This document shows positions 19,590 to 59,419 of a DNA stretch of 64,000 nucleotides, one piece after another; within the stretch, counting starts at the first letter, position 1, and each line of letters starts with the position of its first letter. The position numbers were made by a program, and so were the translations under genes. Below the pieces are notes generated by a model that saw only the letters and a program-made list of their open reading frames with translations, did not search any database and had not been told where the DNA came from. This DNA comes from Escherichia coli (GTDB taxonomy: Bacteria > Pseudomonadota > Gammaproteobacteria > Enterobacterales > Enterobacteriaceae), in the NCBI RefSeq assembly GCF_001677475.2, contig NZ_CP015229.1. The stretch is one strand, 5' to 3'.

Positions 19590-19862
19590 ATGGAAATACG
19601 CGAAGGCCACAATAAATTTTACATAAATGACGAACAAGGCAAGCAAATCGCTGAAATTGTCTTTGTGCCGACCGGAGAGAATTTAGCGATTATCGAACAT
19701 ACCGATGTCGATGAAAGCCTGAAAGGGCAAGGGATTGGTAAACAGCTGGTTGCGAAAGTCGTGGAAAAAATGCGTCGGGAAAAACGAAAAATTATCCCAC
19801 TATGCCCATTTGCGAAACACGAATTTGATAAAACGCGGGAGTATGATGATATTCGCAGTTGA
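19590..19862 (+). CDS. yjdJ: Small GNAT-like protein YjdJ, 90 aa
   Basis: Protein [40 protein letters not shown]... recognised as YjdJ; GAGGG SD; 11 nt after yjdI. Confidence 0.85.
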
Positions 19863-20088
19863 TGGGAGAGTACAGATTCACGATATTTTTCATGCTCTCC
19901 GCGGTGTGATGCAGGAGAGCATCTGAAGGGTAGGGGGATGCACAAAGAATGGGCAGAGAGCGCGTTTTTTTGTCCCAAGTCATCCCCTTTACTGAGCAAA
20001 AAAAAGAATATCTCCTATATGAGAATCATCAATCGGGGTTAATAAGTTTTGCGTCCCCAGAGCGTTTAAAATTGATAGGAGTCATATT

Positions 20089-20385
20089 ATGGAAGGTAAA
20101 AACAAGTTCAATACTTATGTTGTTTCTTTTGATTATCCATCATCTTATTCCTCAGTGTTCTTAAGGTTAAGATCATTGATGTATGATATGAATTTCTCCT
20201 CTATCGTGGCTGATGAATATGGGATACCACGACAATTGAATGAAAATTCCTTCGCAATAACGACATCGTTAGCCGCAAGTGAAATCGAAGATTTAATCAG
20301 GCTTAAATGCTTAGACTTACCGGATATTGATTTTGACCTCAACATTATGACAGTTGATGACTATTTCCGTCAGTTTTACAAGTAG
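20089..20385 (+). CDS. ghoS: Type V antitoxin GhoS (sequence-specific endoribonuclease), 98 aa
   Basis: Protein MEGKNKFNTYVVSFDYPSSYSSVFLRLRSLMYDMNFSS... recognised as GhoS (YjdK); AGGAG SD upstream. Confidence 0.85.
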   Translation: MEGKNKFNTYVVSFDYPSSYSSVFLRLRSLMYDMNFSSIVADEYGIPRQLNENSFAITTSLAASEIEDLIRLKCLDLPDIDFDLNIMTVDDYFRQFYK

Positions 20386-20412
20386 CCAGGAAGGATAAGA
20401 AGAACATAAAAA

Positions 20413-20586
20413 ATGGCACTATTCTCTAAAATATTAATTTTTTATGTGATTGGTGTGAACATATCCTTTGTCATTATCTGGTTTATCTCACATGAGAAAA
20501 CACATATTCGTTTACTTAGTGCATTCCTGGTCGGAATAACCTGGCCAATGAGTCTGCCTGTGGCATTACTTTTTTCTCTCTTTTAG
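20413..20586 (+). CDS. ghoT: Small membrane toxin GhoT, 57 aa (absent from the ORF track because it is under 60 aa)
   Basis: ATG 20413 to TAG 20584..20586 encodes MALFSKILIFYVIGVNISFVIIWFISHEKTHIRLLSAFLVGITWPMSLPVALLFSLF, hydrophobic, 27 nt downstream of ghoS on the same strand. Confidence 0.8.
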   Translation: MALFSKILIFYVIGVNISFVIIWFISHEKTHIRLLSAFLVGITWPMSLPVALLFSLF

Positions 20587-27901: not shown

Positions 27902-29440
27902 TTATTCTGAAGCGAGAAATTTGTCGAGATAAGGTACAACATAAGGAACAGAAGTCTGGAATATACCATTTTCAATCCAGTAAAGGGTGTTTGCCCCTGG
28001 GCGTAAATTAAAGGCGGTGAGATATGCATCAGCTGCTTCCCGGTTCATCCCCTTCATTTCATAAACCTTGCCAAGCAACACATAATTTAGCCAGGACATT
28101 TCAAGATCAATGCCAGTATTTATCGCCTGGTAAGACTCATCTGTTTTACCTTTTACCAGAGCACTGACCGCTTTTATTTGATATATAATGGACAGGTTAT
28201 TCAATTCCGGTAGTGTAACAATGTTATTTATTTCTGTGTTCAGTGCTGCTAATTGTTTTTCATCCAAAGGATGTTGAGAATGGCGCACGATATCAACTAA
28301 TGCTTTTTCTGCTCTCGCGTAGGTAAATTCTGGGGATGATTGAACAATCTCACCTAATAATTCACTGGCACGATTCAATGATTTATCATCGCCATGCAGT
28401 AAATAATCATGTGCCTGATAAAAATTAGTTAATAACGCACCACGATGAGGCAAAATTTGCTGGAGCATCTCCTGCATTCGTTGTGGCCACGGTTGGTTTA
28501 ACGCTTTTGATAAACTCTCCAGTAAATCATTTTGAATCGCCAGCTGATTACCGTTAGTGATGACATAACGTTTATCCAGCATGGTTGAACCATCTGCATT
28601 GTCTACCAATTTTACCGACATAAAGCATTGTTGAGCACGGTATTGGCGCTGATTAACAAACGCAATAGATAATGTTTTACCGGAACTGCTCGGTTCATCA
28701 ATGTTGTAGTTGATTTTGTCATGCACCATAAAGGTGGAGAAGGTGTTAAGTGATGTCGCCACCAAATCACCCACACCTATCGCGTAAGAGAGCTGATATG
28801 GGGAACTCCAGCTGTTACAACTCTTATTCACCATATTAATGTCAATATCGCGTGGATTGAGCAAAATACGCGATTTGCTCATCGGAAGACGTGTATCAAG
28901 ACTTGAAAACGCTACCAGTGCTACACAGATACCTAACGACAACAGGAAAAAAAACCATACCCAAAAGGTAGTGAATCGTTTGCTTTTAACTGGGGATTGT
29001 TCAGGTGGCGTTGCGGTGTTTTGAATGTTAAGACTGTGGGAGGGAGAATCTGTGGCAGGAACCGCCTCTGGTATAGGGGGAGGCGAAGATAGCATTATTT
29101 CCTCTCCCTCTTCTTCGCTGTACCAGATAACCGGCACCATTAATTTATAGCCGCGCTTTGGTACAGTAGCGATATAGACAGGACTATCTTCATCATTATC
29201 TTTTAATGACTTACGTAGTTCTGAGATACTCTGCGTCACAACGTGATTGGTGACAATACTTCTCTTCCAGACATTATCGATAAGTTCATCCCTGCTAAGT
29301 ACTTCGCCACTGTGTTGAGCAAAGAAAACCAGAAGATCGATTAATCTCGGCTCAAGGGTAAGTTGACGCCCATTGCGGCTAATTTGGTTTATGGACGGAG
29401 TAACAAGCCATTCGCCAACGCGAACTACAGGTTGTTGCAT
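27902..29440 (-). CDS. cadC: Membrane-integrated transcriptional activator CadC (ToxR-like), 512 aa
   Basis: Protein MQQPVVRVGEWLVTPSINQISRNGRQLTLEPRLIDLLV... recognised as CadC. Confidence 0.95.
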   Translation of the reverse strand: MQQPVVRVGEWLVTPSINQISRNGRQLTLEPRLIDLLVFFAQHSGEVLSRDELIDNVWKRSIVTNHVVTQSISELRKSLKDNDEDSPVYIATVPKRGYKLMVPVIWYSEEEGEEIMLSSPPPIPEAVPATDSPSHSLNIQNTATPPEQSPVKSKRFTTFWVWFFFLLSLGICVALVAFSSLDTRLPMSKSRILLNPRDIDINMVNKSCNSWSSPYQLSYAIGVGDLVATSLNTFSTFMVHDKINYNIDEPSSSGKTLSIAFVNQRQYRAQQCFMSVKLVDNADGSTMLDKRYVITNGNQLAIQNDLLESLSKALNQPWPQRMQEMLQQILPHRGALLTNFYQAHDYLLHGDDKSLNRASELLGEIVQSSPEFTYARAEKALVDIVRHSQHPLDEKQLAALNTEINNIVTLPELNNLSIIYQIKAVSALVKGKTDESYQAINTGIDLEMSWLNYVLLGKVYEMKGMNREAADAYLTAFNLRPGANTLYWIENGIFQTSVPYVVPYLDKFLASE

Positions 29441-30011
29441 AATAGAAACTCATTCGAAAAGGGAATGATGCAATGATAATTGCCACAACCTATTTTTACC
29501 ATCTATAGATGGGTTTATTTACATATTATTGGTGAATGCAAGACGTTATTTTTACCAGCGATAAACTTCTTGATTACATAGTATTACGAAAGGATTTTAC
29601 TGAGAACCAGAAGTAATATTCCTTACCATCAAAATTCATCATCTTTGCCAAAGAAAAATGTTCAGAAAATAATCCATGGAAAATTGTCCGGAGCGCTTAC
29701 TATTTTAATGGATTGTTAGTCTTTGCATGAGCAAGCGGACTGATAAATTTCTCTTTGTTCTCATTCAGAAAATCTCATCAGTCGCCGTTCAGACCGGTGT
29801 TGTGCTTTATGGATGCGTTACGCTCCTGATGACGTCATTTGACGTTCAACAGCATCACGGGGCCGCACGACATTTCACGTCAGTCAGTGCTATCGCTCAG
29901 GAACACATTTCCCCGAATTGGGATCTACCCGCAAAATGCTGGTGATGTGGGGAGAATCTGGTTGAGTTCGGTAGAATTGATTTGTAGGCAGAACGCTTAA
30001 ATCGTGGCGTC

Positions 30012-30047
30012 CTGAAACGAAAAACGGACCTCCGTGGAGGTCCGTTT
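30012..30047 (-). terminator. Rho-independent terminator of pheU
   Basis: 12-bp perfect stem AAACGGACCTCC/GGAGGTCCGTTT (30022..30047) starting 9 nt after the tRNA CCA end, followed on the minus strand by TTTTCGTTT. Confidence 0.7.
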
Positions 30048-30056
30048 ATATGAATT

Positions 30057-30132
30057 TGGTGCCCGGACTCGGAATCGAACCAAGGACACGGGGATTTTCA
30101 ATCCCCTGCTCTACCGACTGAGCTATCCGGGC
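30057..30132 (-). tRNA. pheU: tRNA-Phe (anticodon GAA), 76 nt
   Basis: Reverse complement reads GCCCGGATAGCTCAGTCGGTAGAGCAGGGGATTGAAAATCCCCGTGTCCTTGGTTCGATTCCGAGTCCGGGCACCA, the canonical E. coli tRNA-Phe. Confidence 0.95.
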
Positions 30133-30238
30133 AACGGGGCGCATTAAACCGTAATCTGCACATCTCGTCAACCTAATTTCAGTAAAAGCGATTCAACTGC
30201 TTAAGATTGCGGCAAATCGCTACTTTTCTGTGTTTCTG

Positions 30239-30814
30239 TCAGGTCAGTGCGCCACCCTGGCGGCAGCGAGCGAAGCGCAGGATATCTTCTGCCAGCCGAT
30301 GTGCGGTGTCGACATCCGCCTGGCTACGATTCACCAGCATTCGGCTTAAACAGCCTTCCAGCACCAGTTCCATCTGCTTTGCTACCATCGCCGGATCGTC
30401 AACTTCCAGCGTGGTTAACAGTTCGTGGGTGAAATCGTAGGCCGCGCTTTTTTGCTGATCGGCCAGTTGATGAATAGGGTGGCCAGGATCGGGATAAAAC
30501 GTACAGGCAGCGATAAATAGACAGCCCGGATAGCGGTTGTTTTTAACGCACTCCGATAACGCCTGATAACGTGCCAGCAGCTTTTGTTCGGCGGTTTGCG
30601 TTTCGTCCAGCATCAGCTGACGACGCCAGACATCTATCTGTTGGCTAAGATAACGCAGCGCATCGTAGAGGATTGCCTCTTTGTCTGGCCAGAAGCGGCG
30701 CAGCTCGTCCAGTGGATAATCCACACGTTCAGCAACCATCTCCAGCGTGGTGTTGGCAATCCCTTGTAATTCTAATAATTTCAGGGCTTCTCCCAGTACA
30801 TCTTCACGTTGCAC
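30239..30814 (-). CDS. yjdC: TetR-family transcriptional regulator YjdC, 191 aa
   Basis: ORF 30239..30838 recognised as YjdC; preferred start is GTG 30814..30812, which has a GGAGG SD 8 nt upstream; the upstream GTG at 30838 is the alternative. Confidence 0.8.
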
Positions 30815-58999: not shown

Positions 59000-59075
<76 letters not shown>

Positions 59076-59232
59076 AAATTTGAAAAGTGCTGCAAAGCAC
59101 AGACCACCCAATCGCAGTATTTCGAATTGCGACAAGGCGGCAACTGAACGAATCCTTGGGAGCTTACAAAAGTAAGTGACTAAGGTGAGTGAAGGCAGCC
59201 AAGGCAGTAGCGGTTCGAAAGACGAAGATTAA

Positions 59233-59308
<76 letters not shown>

Positions 59309-59343
59309 AAATTTGAAGGTGCTGTAAAGCACAGACCACCCAA

Positions 59344-59419
<76 letters not shown>

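Follow-up and report, generated by a model that had tools for sequence, protein, structure and literature searches.

The segment from position 29644 to position 30056 of the window, the 64,000-nucleotide stretch of Escherichia coli DNA analysed here, was very probably left as a scar by an ancient P4-type (intP4/CP4-like) genomic island at the tRNA-Phe gene pheU. This reading draws on features observed directly: homology to a present-day island integrase, the anatomy of the integrase remnant, a deletion junction common to several Escherichia species, and a tandem arrangement with modern islands. The first-pass annotation had proposed that the DNA between cadC and pheU is a decayed remnant of a tRNA-targeted element, and the proposal is borne out by an integrase match (E 1e-11), by position and orientation, by an island-type spacer and by the annotated pseudogene yjdQ.

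In the proposed course of events, a P4-type island would have integrated into the 3′ end of pheU in an ancestor that E. coli has in common with several sister Escherichia lineages. An internal deletion of ~1 kb would then have cut out the arm-binding and central domains of its integrase together with most of the catalytic domain, and the remaining island, including any attR, would have been lost, presumably in this order. The roles left to the scar would be passive, namely the supply of a terminator to pheU and of a chromosomal flank to newly arriving tRNA-Phe islands.

The cadC–pheU interval and its integrase remnant

The genes around the interval follow the order lysU, dtpC, cadA, cadB, cadC, a 616-bp stretch, pheU, dicD and dsbD. 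The stretch (29441-30056) is enclosed by the cadC open reading frame (27902-29440, minus strand) and by pheU (tRNA-Phe(GAA), 30057-30132, minus strand; identified with ARAGORN and by a 68-bit match to the Rfam tRNA family), the 3′ end of which abuts it. Its limits had been given exactly in the first-pass annotation, with the start of cadC at 29440 and the end of pheU at 30057. The GC content of the stretch is 40.3%, compared with 50.3% for the whole window, and ranks in the lowest 4.9% of all 616-bp windows. The earlier description of the stretch as AT-rich holds for the cadC-proximal third, in which positions 29441-29640 have a GC content of 31% (the lowest 0.9% of 200-bp windows), but not for the pheU side, in which the last 200 bp (29857-30056) have an average GC content of 49.5%. 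Of 5426 complete E. coli genomes, 5218 contain the stretch at a coverage of at least 80%; strain GF4-3 matches it at 99.0% identity and K-12 derivatives at 98.1%. Elsewhere in the window, three tandem tRNA-Gly(GCC) genes lie at 59000-59419.

Strain PK8241, in which a present-day composite LEE island of 84 kb separates pheU from the 616-bp stretch, served as the comparator. The integrase of this island (WP_219788371.1) is intact, comprises 421 amino acids and starts 197 bp past pheU. Its domains are Arm-DNA-bind_3, Phage_int_M and Phage_integrase, with the arm-DNA-binding domain (PF13356) at residues 3-88 and the central domain (PF22022) at residues 98-192, and the protein matches PHROG 1, integrase. 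A tblastn search of the stretch with this protein returned three collinear minus-strand matches in the correct order, with a combined E-value of 1e-11: residues 1-11 at 29893-29861 (73% identity), residues 359-391 at 29859-29776 (61%) and residues 397-420 at 29774-29703 (67%). The search supplied the integrase similarity that the first-pass annotation had been unable to recognise by eye. The protein similarity is short, at ~70 codons in total, and the 11-codon N-terminal match is weak alone in E. coli (E 0.15), but it is convincing because a DNA alignment from a sister lineage supports it. In this lineage, a divergent genome deposited as E. coli SCPM-O-B-8794 (L018), one continuous alignment to the modern island extends from the tRNA as far as integrase codon 8 (88% identity, E 1.5e-109) and then jumps to 1333. 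Correspondingly, the tRNA and the 131-bp spacer of the window are 94% identical to the PK8241 island, after which the alignment jumps from ~305 to ~1340 and runs on through the stop codon to about 29644.

The remnant begins with a decayed 5′ leader (29894-29925, minus strand), delimited by alignment to L018 and the modern island, both of which keep 23 nt that E. coli lacks. No other segment varies as much among E. coli strains as this 32-bp leader (84-88% identity, compared with 95-100% for its neighbours). Integrase codons 1-11 follow at 29861-29893 (minus strand; tblastn and blastn) and read IALTDVKCRAA against MALTDAKIRAA. The start codon has changed from ATG to ATA in E. coli, and ATG is kept in L018 and in the sister lineages Escherichia sp. 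E1V33 (L009), Escherichia sp. MOD1-EC7003 (L010) and E. whittamii (L011). The integrase start at 29893 is separated from the pheU 3′ end by 163 bp, compared with 197 bp in PK8241, in the same orientation.

An internal deletion of ~1036 bp, which spans codons ~9-12 to ~353-358, joins codon ~11 straight to the C-terminal codons ~354-420 (29703-29860, minus strand), which were located by tblastn and DNA alignments and overlap yjdQ. The integrase frame is closed by the tandem stop codons TAG TAA (29697-29702, minus strand), placed by translation and by alignment to the modern stop region. Beyond them, the integrase 3′ flank (29644-29696, minus strand) is 58% identical to the modern island and contains a decayed terminator-like hairpin. 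This putative terminator reads CCCGGG-N6-CCCGGG in the modern island and CCGG...CCGG in L009, and is degraded in the window.

The arm-DNA-binding (PF13356) and central (PF22022) domains are gone from the window integrase, and codons 1-11 are the sole remnant upstream of the ~1036-bp deletion. The roles of the catalytic residues (Arg, Lys, His-x-x-Arg, His and Tyr) are assumed here by analogy with lambda Int. Apart from codons 1-11, the coding sequence is deleted up to and including the HGFR motif, and a 1-nt insertion in the C-terminal part puts the second His codon out of frame. A 16-nt deletion has taken the catalytic Tyr codon (AAY) in E. coli; L018 keeps the Tyr codon, as it does the ATG and the 23-nt leader segment. 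The C-terminal part has a further deletion of 14-21 nt, the length of which depends on the alignment, and stop codons are present in every frame. No catalytic residue is left in frame, and the remnant cannot encode a recombinase.

The reconstructed C-terminal peptide matches integrase C-termini only, with identities of at most 77% over the full peptide and up to 85% over parts of it. A closer intact relative of the scar was sought, and the search gave short integrase fragments only, none above 77% over the whole peptide. Other decayed CP4/P4-like integrase fragments, of 53-107 amino acids and 53-85% identity, occur in E. coli, Salmonella, Yersinia and Pectobacterium, and integrase scars of this kind are common. 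Unlike these fragments, the scar at pheU is fixed across E. coli and common to sister species.

It is extremely improbable that the stretch is instead an ordinary intergenic region, composed of a cadC promoter and a pheU terminator, or the site of a 72-codon gene, with its integrase similarity due to chance. Chance is contradicted by the three collinear integrase matches and by sister-species DNA alignments with E-values down to 1e-109. As ordinary intergenic DNA would, the stretch contains a terminator, and its cadC-proximal 69 bp are conserved as a promoter or leader would be. On the opposing side, no Rfam family except tRNA matches the stretch, and a scan of 29300-30300 at E ≤ 1 gave only the tRNA and two chance matches. 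A promoter scan returned one plus-strand consensus match, which is below the shuffle expectation and uninformative on the cadC promoter. The 72-codon open reading frame, described as weak in the first-pass annotation, exists at 29727-29945 on the plus strand and is open in E. coli and L009. However, it is antisense to the integrase remnant, differs at many amino acids from one E. coli strain to another and is interrupted by indels in L010, L011 and L018, three of the four sister lineages. It was rejected as a gene on these grounds and is considered spurious.

The remnant of the island integrase has been annotated before. In the RefSeq annotation of K-12 MG1655, the pseudogene yjdQ (b4654) lies between cadC and pheU at 4362191-4362353, which corresponds to 29697-29859 (minus strand) of the window, and the PGAP label for the same place in other strains is 'tyrosine-type recombinase/integrase; frameshifted; incomplete; missing N-terminus'. 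A frameshifted tyrosine integrase pseudogene is annotated by RefSeq at this locus in nearly all complete E. coli genomes. The decayed integrase pseudogene that the first-pass annotation had placed at this position is this gene. The integrase scar at pheU is real, but already known and annotated. The yjdQ annotation covers the C-terminal fragment alone, and in the stretch, to which the K-12 sequence is 98.1% identical over 616 bp, the first 11 codons, the 5′ leader and the spacer with the predicted pheU terminator also survive. Because the N-terminal codons, leader and spacer are still present, the lesion is an internal deletion rather than the 5′ truncation that 'missing N-terminus' implies.

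A search of a literature library on the name yjdQ gave no match, and the scar is not discussed in papers on pheU/pheV islands (including PMC7686366 and PMC11537424). The refinements added here are the internal-deletion architecture, the probable island origin of the pheU terminator and spacer, an age that predates E. coli, and the tandem stacking of modern islands. Little is new otherwise, since the reference annotation already lists the pseudogene and tRNA hotspots commonly hold integrase scars.

The spacer, the pheU terminator and present-day islands

The island-type spacer (29926-30056, minus strand) represents the attL-side arm between the tRNA and the integrase, and was delimited by alignment to the PK8241 LEE island. 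The two pheU–integrase spacers are identical at 119 of 131 nt (91%). In the sister Escherichia lineages, the spacer is 89-94% conserved, and it is better conserved than the rest of the scar; E. coli genomes have it at a median of 2 places. A terminator scan predicted the intrinsic terminator hairpin of pheU, with an 11-bp stem and a T-run, inside the spacer at 30022-30047 (minus strand), and the modern island spacer has its own copy of this hairpin. The putative terminator that now ends pheU transcription would be island-derived.

In strain 14EC047 (L003:5935-6120), only the 45 bp by the tRNA core (30012-30056 of the window, the terminator) are left, beside an island attR. The other side of this site is a very large TcdA/TcdB-type glycosyltransferase toxin gene, and the scar and cadC are missing there.

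The genes pheU and pheV are major island hotspots that share an integrase (PMC7686366, PMC11537424), and islands at tRNA-Phe have imperfect attR repeats of 19-23 bp (PMC11537424). The attachment core of pheU/pheV islands, the ~23 nt at the 3′ end of pheU, corresponds to 30057-30079 (minus strand), as located from the attR copy in PK8241. In the PK8241 record (4390229-4474322; L007 and L008), the island's own spacer and integrase sit directly against pheU. At the far end of the 84-kb island, an attR with the sequence TGGTGCC-GGACTCGGAATTGAA, which is an imperfect 22-nt copy of the pheU 3′ end, lies directly against the intact scar. Likewise, a modern island in L010 separates pheU from the scar, and its imperfect attR sits directly at the edge of the scar. 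Present-day islands insert between pheU and the scar, stacking in tandem. As each new island lands with its own 91%-identical spacer, direct repeats of ~130 bp would flank it, and these repeated spacers might recombine.

The PK8241 island is composite, with a CP4-like module containing Ag43 and cbtA/yeeU, many IS elements and the LEE. It also contains two-partner-secretion gene fragments and, near the integrase end, a second partial copy of the GTPase/cbtA module.

Integrases of the intP4 type that head tRNA-Phe islands (GI-pheV/GI-pheU, LEE, pap) have the same target tRNA, orientation and spacer (91%) as the scar. Over what is left, the coding remains of the scar are 76-83% identical in nucleotide sequence to the intP4-type integrase gene of PK8241. 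The modern genes are intact, encode 421 amino acids with three domains, and head islands of 46 kb and more. Unlike the modern pheU islands, the window copy is without catalytic residues, cargo and attR. Modern pathogenicity islands stack against the scar, the anatomy of which helps to set pheU island boundaries in comparative genomics; if this anatomy is overlooked, a newly arrived island can wrongly be taken to include the 131-bp repeat and the scar.

A more active role is distinctly unlikely. In such a role, the 131-bp spacer may still hold sites for integrase or host factors, or may recombine with the spacers of incoming islands, and would in this way tune the entry, exit or swapping of tRNA-Phe islands (LEE, pap) at pheU versus pheV; the same island may also have brought cad, dtpC and lysU.

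Age and distribution of the scar

When species-representative genomes were scanned with CadC, five Escherichia loci came up. Four of the five, namely Escherichia sp. E1V33, E. whittamii, Escherichia sp. MOD1-EC7003 and SCPM-O-B-8794, have the same large deletion junction, and these sister lineages (L009, L011, L010 and L018) differ from the E. coli scar by smaller, lineage-specific indels. As the junction is common to E. coli and four other Escherichia species clusters, the deletion predates their split, and the scar is older than E. coli. In the E. albertii representative (NBRC 107761, L026:1-4263), the scar is absent, and the sequence resembles the window only from 69 bp upstream of cadC onward. 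This absence could reflect a later loss, or an integration younger than the genus. At the E. albertii locus, a 612-amino-acid island-type open reading frame (455-2293) and AT-rich DNA precede cadC, with no attR nearby.

This distribution bears on whether the scar arose by recent imprecise excision of a present-day pheU island (LEE, pap) in the near ancestors of the strain. The 91% identity between the spacer and its modern-island counterpart, and the very active use of pheU as an insertion site (PMC7686366, PMC11537424), fit a recent excision. Against this, 5218 of 5426 complete E. coli genomes have the same deletion junction, as do four further Escherichia species clusters, identity between the integrase parts and the modern gene is no more than 76-83%, and strains with a modern pheU island still keep the scar. 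A recent origin is very improbable, and was rejected because the junction is common to several species.

On the other side of pheU, a gene of ~671 amino acids from the DUF1176 family lies between dicD and pheU in Escherichia sp. E1V33 (L009:7179-9194), at the same position in E. whittamii (L011), and likewise in Citrobacter rodentium (L060:10644-12668). The window does not have this gene at 30133-30238, where the gap between dicD and pheU is about 106 bp, which suggests that it was lost in the E. coli lineage.

The cadC side and the origin of the cad block

The region immediately upstream of cadC (29441-29509, minus strand) is 94-97% identical in all Escherichia, including E. albertii. About 45 bp of it are weakly similar to DNA upstream of cadC in Klebsiella, Raoultella and Enterobacter, and the region presumably holds the cadC promoter and 5′ UTR. 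It is followed by an AT-rich segment of about 31% GC (29510-29643), which is single-copy and Escherichia-specific; 5261 of 5426 E. coli genomes contain the piece 29500-29660 at a single place. The AT-rich segment is 81-94% identical in the four sister lineages (81-87% in three), a divergence about equal to that of the scar, and it was not found in the E. albertii representative or in other genera. Judged from these alignments, the left third of the stretch does not appear to be demonstrable island DNA.

In strain TOK-001 (L004:3288-4000), cadC, cadB and the 5′ part of cadA have given way to an IS1 element. The deletion reaches the equivalent of position 29643, the very point at which island homology fades. 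Deletions that cause cad loss are known in Shigella and enteroinvasive E. coli, and the TOK-001 deletion resembles them.

At the cadC–pheU junction, the scar indicates a synteny breakpoint that is specific to the lineage. The scar might be the integrase end of an island that had cadCBA-dtpC, perhaps with lysU, as its cargo, the cargo having been fixed in the ancestor of Escherichia as the island decayed; such an origin is considered unlikely. The cadC-cadB-cadA-dtpC block, often with lysU, is conserved in about 40 other species clusters of Enterobacterales and looks portable, and it lies within 10 kb of tRNA-Phe, dicD or dsbD in Escherichia only. It is present by pheU in nearly all E. coli. 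Furthermore, the order groESL-...-dsbD-dicD-pheU is kept in Salmonella, C. rodentium and Kosakonia, with unrelated DNA past pheU. In the window, cadC directly follows the integrase remnant in the same orientation, and has the lowest GC (41.9%) and GC3 (38.8%) among the large open reading frames. However, cadC is AT-rich and fast-evolving in other genera too, with no island nearby, and CadC is 49-69% identical across genera, compared with 84-94% for CadB and CadA.

The first-pass annotation had described cadCBA-dtpC as lower in GC than the flanking genes, which is correct for cadC, but not for cadB (49.4%), cadA (47.7%) and dtpC (51.4%), which are near the window mean. These three genes and lysU (48.0%) lie within about one standard deviation of the mean for genes of the window (51.2%, standard deviation 3.7). 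Homology to island DNA can be followed only to about 29644, some 200 bp short of the start of cadC. An att-like repeat of the pheU 3′ end, proposed as a check in the first-pass annotation, was not found in the 64-kb window: patterns of 23 nt and 16 nt with up to 3 mismatches, and a fuzzy search with up to 5 errors in 23 nt, returned the tRNA itself only. The same fuzzy search does find the attR of the modern island in L010. With no attR in the window and near-average GC except in cadC, the old acquisition of cadCBA-dtpC at pheU proposed in the first-pass annotation is not established. A chromosomal rearrangement ending at the tRNA hotspot would be expected to leave the same picture.

At the left side of the cad region, synteny breaks at dcuS as well, in C. 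freundii and Trabulsiella, as an arriving cad island might have left it. The immediate neighbour of dcuS in C. freundii is an rRNA operon with tRNA-Glu (L062:2728-7772), and in Trabulsiella the genes at this place are unrelated. In C. freundii too, synteny thus breaks at the left edge of the dcuSR-dcuB-fumB block. When dcuR was followed into other genera as a possible lead, this second breakpoint was seen, with no link to pheU. The flanks of the Klebsiella cad genes were also mapped onto E. coli; the upstream flank had no match, and the downstream flank matched class A beta-lactamase genes only.

The deepest GC trough near the stretch reaches 33% at 20000-20499. It falls within 19590-20500 of the window, where two small open reading frames (19590-19862, 42% GC; 20089-20385, 35% GC) lie between dcuS and lysU, and both are conserved in L010 and L018. 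Fragments of cadC were also seen on three contigs of 279-643 bp labelled Arthrobacter, Myxococcus and Alkalicoccobacillus (L051, L054 and L055, respectively). Those on L051 and L055 are 99-100% identical to E. coli cadC and that on L054 is 69% identical, and these tiny contigs are almost certainly assembly contamination.
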